The translations under genes and the position numbers were made by a program. Below the pieces are notes generated by a model that saw nothing but the letters and a program-made list of their open reading frames with translations, had not been told where the DNA came from and did not search any database. Source: Candidatus Levyibacteriota bacterium (GTDB taxonomy: Bacteria > Patescibacteriota > Microgenomatia > Levybacterales > UBA12049). Taken from it: a stretch of DNA of 64,000 nucleotides. The stretch covers positions 109,614 through 173,613 of the forward strand of contig JAUSEW010000027.1 in NCBI GenBank assembly GCA_030651475.1, written 5' to 3'. Below, piece by piece: positions 2,582 to 7,712 of this stretch; the stretch's first letter is position 1, and each line of letters opens with the position of its first letter.

Positions 2582-3127
2582 ATGAGGTTACACAAAATAG
2601 AAGGTTTTGTTATTAAAAGAAACAATTTTAACGAAGCCGATAGAATTCTGACCGTATTTACCAAACAATCAGGTAAAGTTAAAATTAAAGCAGCAGGTGT
2701 CAGGCGAATTGCCAGCCGCAGATCTCCCCACGTAGAGCTTTTAAATTTATCTCTGCTTACTGTTTATCAAGGCAGGAATATTCCTACGCTTATAGAAGCA
2801 GAAACCATAGAAAGCTTTTCCGATATTAAAAAAAATCTTAAAAAAGTGGGTTTTGCCTATCATATTTGTGAATTGATAGATAAACTTTGCGCGGAGAATC
2901 AGGAGAATAGAGCAGTTTTTAATCTTCTGATGGACATTCTTACGAAACTTGCCAAAGAAGATAATATAGAAGCCACTATTGATAAATTTGAAATTAATTT
3001 GTTAAGTTTGTTGGGATTTTATACGTCTTCGCAATCCCTTATTCCTTCGTTTAATATATCGTCTTTCATAGAAAACATTACGGAAAGAAAACTTAAGAGC
3101 AGGCAATTCTTATCTAAATTTCTGTAA
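2582..3127 (+). CDS. recO: DNA repair protein RecO (short form)
   Basis: The N-terminal OB-fold pattern GFVIKRNNFNEADRILTVFTKQSGKVKIKAAGVRR matches the RecO N-terminus. Confidence 0.65.
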   Translation: MRLHKIEGFVIKRNNFNEADRILTVFTKQSGKVKIKAAGVRRIASRRSPHVELLNLSLLTVYQGRNIPTLIEAETIESFSDIKKNLKKVGFAYHICELIDKLCAENQENRAVFNLLMDILTKLAKEDNIEATIDKFEINLLSLLGFYTSSQSLIPSFNISSFIENITERKLKSRQFLSKFL

Positions 3128-3180
3128 ATTAATCTCCCCTTTTATCGTAACCTCAAAGCTCATAGTGAAATCTTAAACGG

Positions 3181-3196
3181 AAGGGATTATAATAAA
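3181..3196 (+). repeat. 16-bp direct repeat AAGGGATTATAATAAA, copy 1 (contains TATAAT)
   Basis: Identical 16-mer at 3181-3196 and 3576-3591. It contains a consensus -10 hexamer. Confidence 0.75.
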
Positions 3197-3220
3197 AAGA
3201 AATAAAAGCAACAATTCAAA

Positions 3221-3460
3221 ATGCAAAAACCAGCAAAAACAATCATTCTTTTCAATCAGCAAAAAATCCGCCGTTACTGGGATGATGAGAAGGAATTATG
3301 GTATTTCTCTGTTGTTGACGTTATTGCGGCTCTTACAGGTAGCGTTGACCCCTTTGCGTATTGGAGAAAGTTAAAAGAAAGACTTAAGGATGAGGGTGGA
3401 GATGAAACCGTGACAAAATGTCACGCTTTGAAAATGCAAGTAAGCGACGGAAAATTTTAA
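3221..3460 (+). CDS. Bro-N/DinD-like domain protein, truncated (79 aa); possible gene remnant
   Basis: The motif WYFSVVDVIAALTGS..YWRKLKERL matches the Bro-N type. The ORF is far shorter than full-length family members and is followed by about 220 bp of non-coding AT-rich DNA. Confidence 0.4.
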   Translation: MQKPAKTIILFNQQKIRRYWDDEKELWYFSVVDVIAALTGSVDPFAYWRKLKERLKDEGGDETVTKCHALKMQVSDGKF

Positions 3461-3575
3461 ATTCCCTGAAAGAAAAATCAAAAAACTGAAATAACATTAT
3501 AGTAGCTTTCCAAAAAGTGATTTTGGAACAAGCCAATTGCAAAAAAGGTTAAAGGGAAAGTGAAAGAAGAAGGGA

Positions 3576-3591
3576 AAGGGATTATAATAAA
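3576..3591 (+). repeat. 16-bp direct repeat AAGGGATTATAATAAA, copy 2; promoter-like element upstream of the methyltransferase operon
   Basis: Exact copy of the 3181-3196 sequence, about 90 nt upstream of the ATG at 3684. Confidence 0.75.
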
Positions 3592-3683
3592 TATTAATAT
3601 ACGCTATATTTTCTCTTAGGTTTTTATGTATAATTGCTATAGCTATAAAATAGTTAAGATAAGCATCCTGCTTATGTAATTTT

Positions 3684-4523
3684 ATGCAAAATATAATTCC
3701 AATAGGACAAAACAAGGTAATTAATGGATTAGAAGCTAAAAAACCATATTTCAAAAGTGATAATATTCTTATTTATAAAGACGATATTTTGAAAATTGCC
3801 TCTATTCCTGAAAATTCTGTAGATTTGATCGTAACTTCACCGCCTTATAATGTTAATATTCATTACAATTCCCATGTTGACAATTTGACTTATGAGGATT
3901 ATTTGGAATTTACCCAAAAATGGATTAAGAAATGTTTTGATTTAGCAAAAACTGAAGGACGGTTTTTGTTAAACATTCCGCTTGATAAAAATAAAGGCGG
4001 ACAAAAATCAGTTGGAGCAGACATTACACAAATCGCAAAAAATGTTGGCTGGAAATATCACTCAACAATTATTTGGAACGAAGGAAATATATCTCGTCGT
4101 ACTGCTTGGGGTTCATTTATGTCTGCTTCTGCTCCTTATGTTATTGCTCCGGTGGAATTGATTTTGGTTTTATACAAAGACAGCTGGAAGAAGACAGGTG
4201 CGAGTAGGAAAAATGACATTACAAAGCAGGAATTTATGGATTGGACAAACGGAATGTGGACATTTCCTGGCCAAAGTAGAAAAGGAGCAGGCGGTCATCC
4301 CGCACCATTTCCGATTGAATTACCAAGACGGTGTATAAAATTATTTAGCTTTGTCGGTGAAACGGTTTTGGATCCATTTCTAGGAAGCGGAACAACACTT
4401 ATCGCCTCATATCTACATAATAGAAAAGGAATAGGGATTGATATTGATAAAAATTATTGCGATTTGGCAATTAAGCGCTTACAAGTGGAAGCGAAAATAA
4501 ATCAATCAAGTTTGCTAAACTAA
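3684..4523 (+). CDS. DNA methyltransferase, beta-class N4-cytosine/N6-adenine type (SPPY motif IV ahead of the SAM-binding motif)
   Basis: LIVTSPPYNV is the catalytic motif. The SAM-binding region DPFLGSGTTLIAS lies near the C-terminus, which is the circularly permuted beta-class order. Confidence 0.85.
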   Translation: MQNIIPIGQNKVINGLEAKKPYFKSDNILIYKDDILKIASIPENSVDLIVTSPPYNVNIHYNSHVDNLTYEDYLEFTQKWIKKCFDLAKTEGRFLLNIPLDKNKGGQKSVGADITQIAKNVGWKYHSTIIWNEGNISRRTAWGSFMSASAPYVIAPVELILVLYKDSWKKTGASRKNDITKQEFMDWTNGMWTFPGQSRKGAGGHPAPFPIELPRRCIKLFSFVGETVLDPFLGSGTTLIASYLHNRKGIGIDIDKNYCDLAIKRLQVEAKINQSSLLN

Positions 4524-4528
4524 TAATT

Positions 4529-5125
4529 ATGAAGAAAGACAAAAACAACAATATAGTTCAGGAAGATCTTGTAATTGAGTTTTTTAAGAAAAACCCAAAT
4601 AGGGACATAAAACATCCCGAAGTGGTTGATTGGGTTGTATCAGCATATAGAGATAGAACGGGTAATGTGTTTCGTGATCCCGATAGGGCAATTCGTAAAT
4701 TGTCCCAAAGCGGATTTTTAATAAAAATAGCCAAAGGAATTTATAGATATGATCCCAAAAAGGCATATAAACGCGAACTTCAAGATTTTACTGTTGCTCA
4801 AAAACAGACAATTCTAGAAAGAGATGGTTACAAGTGCGTTATATGCGGAAGAGGTAAGAAAGATGGCGTTGATTTACACGTTGACCATATTAAGCCAAAA
4901 GATTTTGGCGGTGAAGCAACAATAGAAAACGGTCAAACTTTATGTTCGCAACATAATTTTATAAAAAAGAATTTGAAGCAAACAGAAACAGGCAAGAAGA
5001 TGTTTATTCGTCTTTATGAATTGGCAAAAAGTGAAAAGAACGAGGAATTAAAAAAGTTTTGCGCAGATGTTCTTGAAACCTACGAAAAACACAATATAAA
5101 TGGGCATATTATCTGGGAAAAATAA
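4529..5125 (+). CDS. HNH endonuclease (candidate restriction endonuclease partner of the methyltransferase)
   Basis: CVICGRGKKDGVDLHVDHIKPKDFGG....CSQHN is an HNH/zinc-finger nuclease motif. It starts 5 nt after the methyltransferase stop. Confidence 0.8.
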   Translation: MKKDKNNNIVQEDLVIEFFKKNPNRDIKHPEVVDWVVSAYRDRTGNVFRDPDRAIRKLSQSGFLIKIAKGIYRYDPKKAYKRELQDFTVAQKQTILERDGYKCVICGRGKKDGVDLHVDHIKPKDFGGEATIENGQTLCSQHNFIKKNLKQTETGKKMFIRLYELAKSEKNEELKKFCADVLETYEKHNINGHIIWEK

Positions 5126-5131
5126 TTACCT

Positions 5132-5518
5132 ATGAATCCTTCCAGAGAACATCAAGATTTAATTAAGGCCCTTAAAAACCATTTTATACAAAGATTGGGC
5201 TTTACTATATTAAGCGTTGATCTTCCTGAATCTTTAGATAAGCCTTTTCAAATTGGCAGACACAGTCCCGATATTATCGCTAAGGATCAATTTGGAATTA
5301 TACAAATTGGAGAGGCTAAGGTAGGAGACAACATATCTTCTCCTGAGTCTGAAGAACAATTTAAGGATTTCTCTAATCAAGTAATGAGGGGAACAAATGT
5401 TCCAGTTCCGTTGCATATAATAATTTTTCAAAAAGATTATAATACTTTATTAACAAAATTAACAACAGTTGGTCTAAGTCAAAAAATAGGTACGAAAATT
5501 GTAATATGGACAATATAG
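5132..5518 (+). CDS. Hypothetical small protein with a possible PD-(D/E)xK nuclease-like motif (SPD...GEAK)
   Basis: 128-aa ORF packed tightly between the HNH and PIN genes. HSPDIIAKDQFGIIQIGEAKVG fits a [S/P]D-x(n)-E-x-K pattern. The fold assignment is speculative. Confidence 0.45.
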   Translation: MNPSREHQDLIKALKNHFIQRLGFTILSVDLPESLDKPFQIGRHSPDIIAKDQFGIIQIGEAKVGDNISSPESEEQFKDFSNQVMRGTNVPVPLHIIIFQKDYNTLLTKLTTVGLSQKIGTKIVIWTI

Positions 5519-6126
5519 CTTCCGATCAAAAGGCTAAAATAGCTGAAACAAAAGAGGCAATAGAAGATAGGCCTGTTGTGAAGGAACCCCCTAGTGGTCC
5601 AAAAATACTCCTAGAGTCATCTTTTATTTTGGCAATACTGAATCAAGTGGATCCAAATAACAAAACTGCTAGTGCAATATTAGGTTTTCTTACGCCTTTT
5701 AACTGCAGATTTCATATTCCATTATTAGTTTCGGCTGAAGTTTTATCAAAAGTCGTACAAAGAGAAAAGGGCGTAGCGGCAGGAATAAAACTCTTTGAGT
5801 CTTTTATGAAAAGACTACCAGGGACACTTTTAACAGGAGCTACGCCCGATTTCGATGATATCGTCAGTCGATATAAAATGTTTGGCAGAAAAGACATAAA
5901 AAATTTACAAGGCAACGATTTCATAATAGTTACAGAAGGAATAATTTCTGGTTCTGTTATTTTAACTTGTGACCATGAAATGTATAAAAGAGTTAAGAAT
6001 TACCATGAAGACATATATTTTGTTGCCACAGACTCTGATAAATATGAGGATGATGCTGCTAAATTAATTAGTAGATTTCTCAAATTATCTGCTGCTCCAG
6101 TCGGTAGCAAACAGGGGGTTAAATAA
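5506..6126 (+). CDS. PIN-domain protein (VapC-like nuclease fold) with an N-terminal extension
   Basis: Four PIN-type acidic positions are recognisable: ILLESSFILA, LLVSAEVLSKV, PDFDDIVS and ILTCDHEMYK. It overlaps the upstream gene by 13 nt. Confidence 0.55.
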   Translation: MDNIASDQKAKIAETKEAIEDRPVVKEPPSGPKILLESSFILAILNQVDPNNKTASAILGFLTPFNCRFHIPLLVSAEVLSKVVQREKGVAAGIKLFESFMKRLPGTLLTGATPDFDDIVSRYKMFGRKDIKNLQGNDFIIVTEGIISGSVILTCDHEMYKRVKNYHEDIYFVATDSDKYEDDAAKLISRFLKLSAAPVGSKQGVK

Positions 6127-6151
6127 TAGATAGGGCGCATGCGTTACGTAT

Positions 6152-6178
6152 ACACCTCGAAGGTGTAAGGCTATTTTC
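6152..6178 (+). terminator. Possible intrinsic terminator (ACACCT-CGA-AGGTGT hairpin then TATTTTC)
   Basis: A 6-bp stem with a 3-nt loop sits 26 nt after the PIN gene stop. A U-rich tract follows after 5 nt. Weak. Confidence 0.3.
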
Positions 6179-6356
6179 AAGAGAAGAAATAGACAAAATA
6201 GGACGACTTTATTAGCAAGGAGTTTTTGCTGCTATTGAATTATTTATTTATGGCTTCTTTTCTGCTATTATAGATTTGTGGATAACCTGATGGAAAAGAT
6301 TGTTTCTCTTTGCAAACGCCGAGCCGCCAAAGGCGAGCCTCGCCTTATTATTCAAT

Positions 6357-7712
6357 ATGGATCAAAAAAATAATAAACAAAACTTAATGGATAAAATTAC
6401 AGCTTTATGTAAGAGGCGGGGTTTTATTTATCCCGGAAGTGAAATCTACGGAGGATTGCAAGGCACTTGGGATTACGGGCCCCTTGGTACGCTTCTGAAA
6501 AAGAATCTAAAAGATATTTGGTGGAAAGACGCAGTTGAGAAAAGAGACGACATGGTGGGAGTTGACGCCGCAATTATGATGCATCCAAAAGCTTGGGAAG
6601 CTTCAGGACATGTGGAAGCATTTACAGATCCTTTGGTTGAATGCAAGATATGCCACGAACGTTTTAGAGCTGATGAGAAAGAAAAAGTTCTTGAGCATAT
6701 CAAAACCCATGATGGGAAAAAAGTTGACTGGACTAATCCGCAAAAGTTTAATTTATTGGTAAAAGCATATTTAGGAGTAATTGAAGGTAAGCAGTCGGAA
6801 TTATATCTGCGGGGAGAAATTACAAACGGAGCACAAGTGAATTTCAGAAATGTTTTAGATTCTACCAGAATAAAAATTCCTTTTGGTATAGCGCAAATAG
6901 GTAAAGCCTTTAGAAATGAAATAACGCCGGGGAATTTTACTTTTAGAAGCAGGGAGTTTGAGCAAATGGAAACCCAATATTACATAAAGCCCGACAAAAA
7001 AGAAGGAGAAAAATGGTTTGAATACTGGAAAGATAACAGAATGAATTTCTATCTTTCTTTGGGAATAAAAAAAGAAAACTTAAGATTTAGAGAACATAGG
7101 GAAGAAGAAAAAGCGCATTATGCGATAGCAGCAACAGATATAGAATATAACGCTCCGTTTGGGTGGTCGGAATTTATGGGCATACATAATAGGGGTGACT
7201 GGGATTTGTCAAGACACCAGAAATATTCGGGACAGAAAATGACATATAAAGATGAAGTAGCTGGAGAAGAATATGTTCCATGGGACATAGAAACATCAGC
7301 AGGAGTTGACAGATCAATATTATTTTTGCTAATTGATTCGTATGAAGAGGATGATCCTTCGACAGGCTCAGGACAAGGGAAGAGAGTGGTTTTGAAGCTT
7401 AATCCCAAGCTTGCTCCGTATAAAGCTGCGGTTTTTCCTCTTCTTGCCAATAAAGAAGATCTTGTAAAAACCGCCAAAGATGTTTATTATAGTCTCAAGA
7501 AAGATATCAATGGAATGGTTGCTTTTGACGCCAGGGGAAATATCGGAAAACGCTATTATTCCCAAGATGAAATCGGTACGCCATATTGCATAACAGTTGA
7601 TTTTCAAACACTTGAAGACGAAACAGTTACGGTTAGGAATAGAGATACGATGAAACAGGAAAGAATAAAAATAGAAAAACTCGCAGAATTCTTAAATCCA
7701 AAAATAGATTAA
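6357..7712 (+). CDS. glyQS: Glycine--tRNA ligase (class II, alpha2 GlyQS type)
   Basis: ITALCKRRGFIYPGSEIYGGLQGTWDYGPLG and downstream class II motifs. The start is taken at the ATG at 6357 inside the longer ORF. Confidence 0.9.
   Translation: MDQKNNKQNLMDKITALCKRRGFIYPGSEIYGGLQGTWDYGPLGTLLKKNLKDIWWKDAVEKRDDMVGVDAAIMMHPKAWEASGHVEAFTDPLVECKICHERFRADEKEKVLEHIKTHDGKKVDWTNPQKFNLLVKAYLGVIEGKQSELYLRGEITNGAQVNFRNVLDSTRIKIPFGIAQIGKAFRNEITPGNFTFRSREFEQMETQYYIKPDKKEGEKWFEYWKDNRMNFYLSLGIKKENLRFREHREEEKAHYAIAATDIEYNAPFGWSEFMGIHNRGDWDLSRHQKYSGQKMTYKDEVAGEEYVPWDIETSAGVDRSILFLLIDSYEEDDPSTGSGQGKRVVLKLNPKLAPYKAAVFPLLANKEDLVKTAKDVYYSLKKDINGMVAFDARGNIGKRYYSQDEIGTPYCITVDFQTLEDETVTVRNRDTMKQERIKIEKLAEFLNPKID

Follow-up and report, generated by a model that had tools for sequence, protein, structure and literature searches.

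Introduction

Ribonucleases (RNases) that are embedded in restriction-modification (R-M) loci and governed by them are known, as in the case of PrrC and the 'restriction linked orfs' (PMC2610378; PMC12707154). PIN genes have been described in a related position: section 17 of Matelska et al. 2017 (PMC5499597) mentions PIN genes that appear to share a transcript with type I R-M subunits, in some cases with no antitoxin to be recognised, and presents these as sporadic and not conserved between related species, with none in that section involving type II systems. In toxin-antitoxin (TA) networks, the combination of one neutraliser domain with unrelated toxins is documented, as for Panacea/PanA (PMC10440598). 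The subject of the present study is a pair of overlapping genes, termed here A and B, found in a stretch of 64,000 nucleotides (64 kb) from a Candidatus Levyibacteriota bacterium (assembly GCA_030651475.1, contig JAUSEW010000027.1, positions 109,614 to 173,613), referred to below as the window. Gene A encodes a small protein with a PD-(D/E)xK nuclease fold, gene B a divergent PIN protein, and in related loci a protease gene takes the place of B. This restriction-linked cassette of a nuclease-fold protein and a PIN protein or protease appears to be an accessory of restriction systems not described before, and not an ordinary TA pair.

The locus resembles VapBC in its layout, a PIN gene preceded by a small gene that overlaps it, and in that the predicted fold of B is closest to VapC, with its four acidic residues at the canonical positions. 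In contrast to VapBC, A adopts the PD-(D/E)xK fold and has neither a ribbon-helix-helix (RHH), AbrB, PHD or helix-turn-helix (HTH) domain nor a disordered toxin-binding tail. The first acidic residue of B is, furthermore, an invariant glutamate and B scores below the Pfam PIN threshold; the cassette is embedded in R-M operons and is probably not an autonomous, autoregulated locus; and the PIN protein is replaceable by a protease. Since an upstream antitoxin of the VapB kind was looked for in A and not found, the pair is not VapBC in the strict sense.

With PrrC/RloC and the 'restriction linked orfs' the cassette shares the presence of a putative RNase gene within an R-M operon, in the type III versions between mod and res, and by analogy such a position suggests a translation-disabling backup coupled to restriction. 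PrrC and RloC are, however, single proteins that combine an ABC-ATPase with an anticodon nuclease, whereas here there are two proteins, with no sequence or domain relationship to them; and while the former go with one type I family, the cassette accompanies R-M systems of types II, IIG and III, so that one restriction complex is unlikely to silence it directly. Among published observations, the note of Matelska et al. in the section cited above comes closest. Unlike the type I cases given there, the arrangement described here is conserved across lineages of the Candidate Phyla Radiation (CPR), involves types II, IIG and III, always includes A and has the protease alternative. As with Panacea/PanA, a single small conserved protein goes with downstream effectors of unrelated families; A differs in having another fold and conserved catalytic residues, and in having two partner types only, each bound to its own clade. 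Keyword searches of the searchable literature revealed no description of the cassette, nor any of SDH-type proteases in defence. The immune repertoire of CPR bacteria (Patescibacteria) is poorly characterised, and their small genomes rely heavily on R-M.

Results

In the window, the genes for a DNA methyltransferase (MTase), an HNH endonuclease, A and B follow one another on the forward strand (Table 1) with spacings of 5, 6 and -13 nt, and from these distances they are probably co-transcribed and translationally coupled. The A-B pair is the 3' (distal) half of this four-gene R-M operon. The ATG of A lies 6 nt after the HNH gene, and at other loci the cassette is found between mod and res; a consensus scan of the region detected no strong promoter directly upstream of A.

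A total of 87 loci were collected and dereplicated to 58 distinct A genes, to which three loci were added later. The homologs of B form 30 clusters with 43-75% identity, all of them from CPR lineages or metagenomes, and in front of each there is an open reading frame (ORF) of 127-130 aa with 46-65% identity to A, including loci in which gene calling had overlooked it. Proteins identical to those of the window are on public record from a Candidatus Levybacteria (CPR) genome bin. Gene A is located immediately 5' of B in every PIN-linked locus, and the A-B order is constant across dozens of other genomes, in which the two genes are conserved at 45-75% identity. The cassette, i.e. A together with a partner gene, is present in at least 43 distinct CPR loci; its sole non-CPR example, in an Omnitrophica bin, follows a gene for a PLD-family nuclease. 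A search of 185,579 species genomes gave six hits, all in Patescibacteria, and the window contains a single copy of the cassette. Neither A nor B was found in 2.9 million viral contigs (two scans), in PHROGs or, by tblastn, in phage and plasmid records; the cassette is an optional, host-side add-on.

The linkage to R-M genes was tallied for those non-redundant cassettes that had enough flanking sequence (38). A recognisable R-M gene is present at most two genes away in 29 of them, and in one further case at 3.5 kb. The type II partners comprise HNH enzymes, NmeDI-like enzymes and several PADLOC REase_II families, the type IIG partners are fusion enzymes of 1008-1084 aa, and a type I-like MTase was seen beside the cassette at one locus. 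With type III systems the order is Mod-A-B-Res and each gene overlaps the next; at least seven distinct loci (including L009, L013, L014, L029 and L085) have this form. The idea that A substitutes for a missing nuclease domain of the type III Res was rejected, as these Res proteins fit type III models for the full-length enzyme, and complete type II and type IIG systems have the cassette as well. None of A, B and the protease partner matched a system of PADLOC-DB v2; among the cassette loci, only the flanking R-M genes did.

The sequence of A contains S45-P46-D47 and, after 13 residues, E61-A62-K63. The initial annotation had recognised this arrangement as one typical of PD-(D/E)xK nucleases, and it turned out to be near-invariant: among 119 members of the family, P46 and D47 are retained in 118, E61 in 117 and A62 in 116, and position 63 is occupied by lysine in 106 and by glutamate in 13. 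In distant relatives of A, E-x-E is common at the motif. Sites of the BamHI type also carry glutamate in place of the motif lysine. Further residues are conserved specifically in this family, namely the N-terminal NPS-x-EHQ, H44, E75-Q76, H95 and the C-terminal IWTL.

The AlphaFold model of A (predicted local distance difference test score, pLDDT, 96; predicted template modelling score, pTM, 0.89) is fully ordered and has an alpha-beta-beta-beta-alpha-beta core, with helices at residues 5-22 and 65-81 and strands at residues 25-29, 48-51, 57-62 and 94-98. D47 starts the second strand and E61-A62-K63 ends the third. In Foldseek searches against the PDB, the leading matches were all PD-(D/E)xK proteins, i.e. 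NucS/EndoMS, BstEII, XisH, EcoO109I, the Cas4-family ACE1, VRR-NUC and Can2, and against viral models they were MmcB-like proteins and PD-(D/E)xK nucleases. The scores were modest (E 2e-3 and above; template modelling score 0.4-0.65), so that the fold is clear while a close relative is lacking. The best sequence match in the PDB is the Hjc resolvase, with an E value of 0.12 that is not significant and with the catalytic PD...E-x-K motifs in register. Searches of Pfam, NCBIfam and PADLOC detected no RHH, AbrB, HTH, PHD or other DNA-binding model in A, in agreement with the absence of a VapB-like DNA-binding N-terminus that had been claimed for it. With regard to the features that define the PD-(D/E)xK clan, the core fold and the placement of the aspartate and of the (D/E)-x-K are both found in A, and a match to a curated clan model is not: no Pfam, NCBIfam, PADLOC or PHROG family was matched at E <= 0.01. 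A is thus a small protein of the PD-(D/E)xK nuclease fold, and it is probably active. In its length of about 130 aa, its core fold and the position of its motif on strands 2 and 3 it resembles the minimal proteins of this class (archaeal Hjc, the C-domain of NucS/EndoMS, XisH, MmcB-like proteins and VRR-NUC); it differs from them in that the likeness exists at the level of the fold only, no family model applies and the conserved residues are specific to the family.

A profile search recovered 119 clusters of A homologs at 90% identity, and an exhaustive search with a hidden Markov model (HMM) recovered 570 clusters at 50% identity (143 of them at E <= 1e-10). Almost all of these proteins stand alone and have 120-140 aa. 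They would define a PD-(D/E)xK family not modelled before and without a Pfam entry. That A is an orphan gene had been considered when a single-sequence search matched only A itself, which was due to a word-index limit; the contexts of the B homologs and the profile search recovered the family. Fusion proteins with an A-like domain (with SHOCT, with unknown N-termini and, in one case, a PKD/lipase protein) were uninformative. The last of these, P0270, is a secreted-looking protein of 1251 aa with PKD and lipase/esterase domains and has two A-like repeats without the PD motif, apparently a non-catalytic use of the A fold.

In the AlphaFold model of B, the core of residues 30-200 has a pLDDT of about 85-94 and residues 1-24 are below 50; strand 1 of the PIN fold begins at residue 30. 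This disordered stretch and the late strand start account for some 30-36 extra residues before E37, and in the homologs the tail is unconserved and often rich in lysine. Foldseek assigned B to VapC/PIN structures with a probability of 1.0 and E values down to 6e-5, all 23 matches at E <= 1e-3 being PIN proteins. The acidic residues E37, E78, D138 and D156 are invariant in the 30 homologs and occupy the expected secondary-structure positions. The first of them, in LLE37SSF, aligns with the canonical aspartate of two relatives that lack A (L019 and L020, with ILLDSSW and ITFDTSF), and glutamate (LLESSF) is found in all 30 A-linked PIN proteins. From this alignment it follows that the glutamate of B is real, homologous to the catalytic aspartate and specific to the A-linked clade. 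The glutamate at this site and an N-terminal extension of about 35 aa had both been read from the sequence in the initial annotation, as had the two ORFs with their 13-nt overlap, and all of these were borne out; the structure predictions and Foldseek comparisons that it had proposed as a check gave nuclease folds for both proteins.

When B was compared with the HMMs of the PIN clan, PF01850 was not matched at E <= 1, and the sole match was to Mut7-C with 16.5 bits, under the cut-off of 23.3. The A-less relatives L019 and L020 do pass PF01850, with 36.3 and 30.1 bits against a threshold of 23.6, and they match the B profile at 1e-36 and 3e-45, by which the B family is tied to canonical PIN proteins by sequence. 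By its modelled fold and its acidic residues B belongs to the PIN/VapC superfamily as a divergent member, and an RNase function is predicted. Apart from the PIN domain and the disordered tail, Pfam, AlphaFold and Foldseek revealed no other domain, and specifically no ABC-ATPase N-domain or anticodon-nuclease C-domain. The long N-terminus of the L019 PIN protein was tested as a fused A domain and is not A. In L020 (7959-8495), a stand-alone PIN protein of the B lineage, with the canonical aspartate and a lysine-rich N-terminal tail, has no antitoxin-like neighbour; its gene starts 2 nt after sufBD, in a dnaG-rpoD-sufBD housekeeping block.

At the junction of the two genes, the ATG of B lies within the conserved C-terminal Ile-Trp codons of A, being made of the last base of the Ile codon and the first two of the Trp codon (ATA TGG ACA, I-W-T, gives ATG GAC, M-D). 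The overlap is conserved, and a spacing of -13 is the modal one both from A to PIN genes (10 of 23 junctions) and from A to protease genes (15 of 20); nearly all cassettes have either this spacing or gaps of 1-5 nt. As -13 is modal for both partners, the start codon of the partner gene is built into the conserved C-terminus of A.

After 20 distinct A genes the next gene encodes not a PIN protein but a conserved protein of 327-334 aa matching SDH_protease (Pfam E 1e-12, above threshold), a ClpP-like serine proteinase with the motifs IHSPGG and MAKSAAT. This partner was considered as a divergent PIN protein and rejected: it scores below zero with the B profile and is unrelated to B. Clustering of the A proteins separates the PIN-linked (23) from the protease-linked (20) perfectly with three linkage methods, and the nearest neighbour of each A shares its partner type in 43 of 43 cases. 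Only two partner types were seen, each with its own A clade, which argues for one ancient swap and not for rampant promiscuity. Furthermore, pairwise identities of A and B are correlated (r = 0.76), a value reached by none of 2000 permutations.

The R-M genes behave differently. Homologs of the MTase and HNH proteins of the window, with 87-95% identity, are found upstream of A genes that are only 45-50% identical, and A is followed by a PIN gene in the window and L033 and by a protease gene in L056 and L058. The nucleotide similarity to the window, about 81%, stops at the stop codon of the HNH gene, 7 nt before the ATG of A. A co-evolves with its partner, and the shuffling of the R-M units is independent of this. 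PIN-linked and protease-linked loci with the same R-M unit were compared for a recombination breakpoint inside A, and there is none, the extension of the blastn match being conserved sequence. The same MTase and HNH pair is annotated without A-B on the Calditerrivibrio plasmid NC_014749. The unit itself (window 3744-5125) is about 81% identical at the nucleotide level in the window, L033, L056 and L058, and the other flanks are unrelated, which suggests its recent horizontal spread among CPR genomes.

Discussion

From what is described above (the two folds with their motifs, the layout of the operon, the conservation of the cassette, the exchange of partners, their co-evolution with A and the linkage to R-M genes) we infer an interaction of A with its effector, a signal and a defensive outcome. 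The reading adopted here, tentatively, is that the cassette is an accessory tethered to R-M systems and consists of a nuclease-fold controller or sensor, A, and an effector that can be swapped, either an RNase or a protease. A would stay constant, and the downstream gene would be an exchangeable degradative effector, a PIN RNase in the window and a ClpP-like SDH-type protease in the sister clade. A would bind and control the effector that is translated together with it, and would respond to a signal at the level of DNA, for which the products of restriction, DNA that lacks protection and an anti-restriction protein mimicking DNA are candidates. The signal would set the RNase or protease free and, with restriction under challenge, provide a second defence in the form of growth arrest or abortive infection. 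Since the R-M types concerned are unrelated, direct contact with the restriction enzyme is less likely as the trigger than a signal from DNA or from anti-restriction. By analogy, this logic resembles that of PrrC in its type I locus and of TA modules with one neutraliser and several toxins, and it is with similar reserve that the cassette may be called PrrC-like or TA-like in its logic and not canonical VapBC.

A more specific form of this idea, which appears rather doubtful, would make the cassette a 'restriction guard' in which A, as a sensor of DNA state or of anti-restriction, restrains an RNase or protease executioner and can be attached to any type of R-M system (II, IIG, III and perhaps I). 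It would constitute an abortive-infection layer firing when restriction is evaded or inhibited, and the replacement of aspartate by glutamate in the PIN protein could be part of its latency.

Several points weigh against an R-M-tethered accessory. The toxicity of the effectors, the binding of A to B and the link to restriction activity are all matters that we infer. Nine of the 38 evaluable cassettes have no recognisable adjacent R-M gene; upstream of such cassettes there are unassigned ORFs of 200-330 aa or 819 aa, which could be unrecognised restriction enzymes. At L041, A occurs beside a type IIG enzyme without an effector, and the more distant relatives of A show no R-M linkage and no consistent neighbourhood. 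As the R-M partners are of unrelated types, a direct contact with the restriction enzyme in the style of PrrC would hardly be expected, and the linkage could be one of position only. The PIN lineage of B need not be toxic, given that the L020 protein stands alone beside sufBD. Finally, a purely regulatory role leaves the conserved catalytic residues of A unexplained.

Alternatively, the pair could be a non-canonical type II TA addiction module, with B or the protease as toxin, A as an antitoxin of unusual fold and no coupling to restriction; the adjacency to R-M genes would then reflect the clustering of selfish and defence genes, or a promoter-less pair hitchhiking on R-M transcription and stabilising the island. 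The vapBC-like layout, with a small upstream gene overlapping the PIN gene, and the nearness of the B fold to VapC toxins speak for such a module, and R-M units and cassettes do recombine independently. It also has precedents: a single neutraliser with unrelated toxins is documented for TA networks (PMC10440598), and TA pairs with a PIN protein have been noted in the vicinity of type I R-M genes (PMC5499597, section 17). A, however, is a compact, ordered enzyme fold with near-invariant catalytic residues and without a DNA-binding domain or disordered tail, and a mere antitoxin would not need the catalytic residues that A keeps, which counts against a plain TA pair. The cassette has, moreover, no evident promoter of its own and can lie between mod and res with overlapping junctions, its R-M linkage in about three quarters of the loci is much tighter than loose clustering in defence islands, and, unlike the expanded vapBC families, it is present in a single copy in the 64-kb window. 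All things considered, a TA module without coupling to restriction is unlikely. The phrase 'non-canonical TA or nuclease module', under which the initial annotation had placed the pair, holds for the nuclease module and not for a free-standing TA locus, the pair being the distal half of an R-M operon; TA remains one of several live readings.

It is improbable that the cassette is instead a regulator of R-M, in the sense of restriction alleviation or establishment control. On that hypothesis the RNase or protease would lower the mRNA or protein of the restriction enzyme on a cue from A, which would detect damage to self-DNA or unmethylated host DNA and so guard small genomes from autoimmunity after acquisition of an R-M system or during DNA repair. 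RNase and protease would be interchangeable if their shared job were the destruction of one target, as mRNA or as protein, and co-transcription with any R-M type suits a generic control device. Proteolytic restriction alleviation by ClpXP is, furthermore, established for type I enzymes (PMC12707154), and the invariant aspartate-to-glutamate change in the A-linked PIN proteins could mean an attenuated, specialised RNase. Yet the restriction enzymes concerned are unrelated (HNH, PD-(D/E)xK, PLD-like, type IIG fusions and Res helicase-nucleases), and a single specificity towards all of them is hard to picture. A dedicated alleviation module encoded in the operon is without precedent, and the same R-M pair occurs elsewhere without the cassette, on the Calditerrivibrio plasmid.

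Less probable again is a reversal of roles, in which A would do the harm, as a DNase toxin or as an additional restriction nuclease, and the RNase or protease would be an antidote acting on the mRNA or protein of A (a toxin-first, type V-like TA system), or in which A would be a homing-type endonuclease mobilising the cassette to the 3' ends of R-M operons. The catalytic residues of A are indeed the best conserved feature of the cassette, A accompanies an R-M enzyme without a partner at L041, and the cassette occurs at many R-M junctions with sharp breaks in similarity. There is no precedent, however, for PIN or ClpP-like proteins as antitoxins, VapC-like PIN proteins being typically toxins. 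Terminal repeats and target-site signatures are absent and the insertion contexts have no sequence in common, and the replacement of lysine by glutamate, seen in 13 of the 119 A members and often in distant relatives, makes the activity of A uncertain, although sites of the BamHI type tolerate it.

That A and B are a housekeeping pair, a small DNA-repair or junction-resolving nuclease and an RNA-processing PIN protein that merely neighbour R-M genes, is very improbable, for in spite of the weak, non-significant resemblance of A to Hjc with its aligned motifs, the match of the A fold to MmcB-like repair proteins and the one A-less PIN relative among housekeeping genes, the cassette is patchily spread (the six hits among species genomes, all Patescibacteria), has different flanking genes in each lineage, sits in an island between recO and glyS, can have its PIN partner replaced by a protease and is linked to R-M.

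Were the R-M-tethered accessory correct, the idea of restriction-linked suicide or backup effectors would extend from the type I loci of PrrC/RloC to types II, IIG and III, with another architecture. The cassettes would also offer a natural experiment on effector exchange in small defence modules, the same controller clade structure being combined with either an RNase or a protease. The module, of about 1 kb, and its cognate 1.4-kb R-M pair are tractable in E. coli.

Genomic context

The features of the operon in the window are collected in Table 1.

Table 1. Coordinates of the operon features, the cassette genes and their motif codons in the window.
Feature	Position	Strand	Properties and evidence
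Promoter-like GTGAAA-17-TATAAT before the MTase gene, likely operon promoter	3560..3588	+	Consensus scan, 10/12 matches; weak
Type II N6/N4 DNA MTase, operon gene 1	3684..4523	+	Pfam N6_N4_Mtase E 1e-44; PADLOC MTase_II E 3e-96
HNH endonuclease, presumed restriction enzyme of the R-M pair	4529..5125	+	Pfam HNH E 2e-9; PADLOC REase_II E 1e-5
Gene A	5132..5518	+	128 aa, ATG start; family without curated model
S45-P46-D47 codons of A	5264..5272	+	
D47 codon, catalytic type	5270..5272	+	
E61-A62-K63 codons of A	5312..5320	+	
E61 codon, catalytic type	5312..5314	+	
K63 codon, catalytic type	5318..5320	+	
A/B overlap, 13 nt	5506..5518	+	Sequence
Gene B	5506..6126	+	206 aa, ATG start; divergent PIN (VapC-like)
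N-terminal tail of B, residues 1-29, variable and disordered	5506..5592	+	AlphaFold pLDDT, homolog alignment
E37 codon of B, first acidic site	5614..5616	+	
Terminator-like hairpin and T-rich tail, 25 nt past the B stop codon, likely operon end	6151..6167	+	Pattern scan; suggestive

In the consensus scan, promoter-like sites in the region were not above shuffled expectation, so that the evidence for the site before the MTase gene is weak; in the pattern scan, four sites with a hairpin and T-tail were seen against 2.2 expected. The promoter-like site is part of a 53-nt direct repeat, D1, whose two copies (3164-3216 and 3559-3611) are 72% identical and both hold GTGAAA-17-TATAAT, one being located ahead of a 79-aa ORF and the other ahead of the MTase gene. 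This ORF (3221-3460, forward strand), at the left end of the R-M island between recO and the MTase gene, matches only the N-terminal 76 or so residues of the 274-aa phage protein family phrog_15286 (E 4e-21), whose function is not assigned, and has the appearance of a phage-derived gene that was truncated. The block of about 3 kb that comprises the 79-aa fragment, the MTase, the HNH endonuclease, A and B lies between recO and glyS (glycyl-tRNA synthetase; window 2582-7712). Its G+C content of 0.31-0.34, compared with 0.37-0.39 in the flanks, is consistent with an inserted island. A repeat scan detected no flanking repeats, terminal repeats or target-site signatures around the cassette or the island. 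The N-terminal third of the HNH endonuclease has a weak match to AbiEi-type winged helices (Pfam AbiEi_4 E 0.0095; several PADLOC AbiEi models at about 1e-3), and this region may, on the strength of that similarity, be the DNA-recognition domain of the enzyme.

Three loci have a different neighbourhood. In L011 (1720-6383), the A-B cassette is flanked upstream by an 819-aa protein without a family match and downstream by a DUF2130 protein, and this locus could hold a defence system, R-M or other, that has gone unrecognised. In L060 (28-1674), a 548-aa protein is found upstream of A instead of an R-M gene, and the contig ends before the partner gene; this protein matches the protease portion of retron-type reverse transcriptase-protease models as well as a NACHT-related model. 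In L076 (1595-5604), a distant relative of A adjoins divergently oriented genes for an AAA_13 ATPase (E 4e-126; a family including ATPases of the PrrC/RloC type) and an ImmA/IrrE-type Peptidase_M78, and this neighbourhood is another conflict-type setting.

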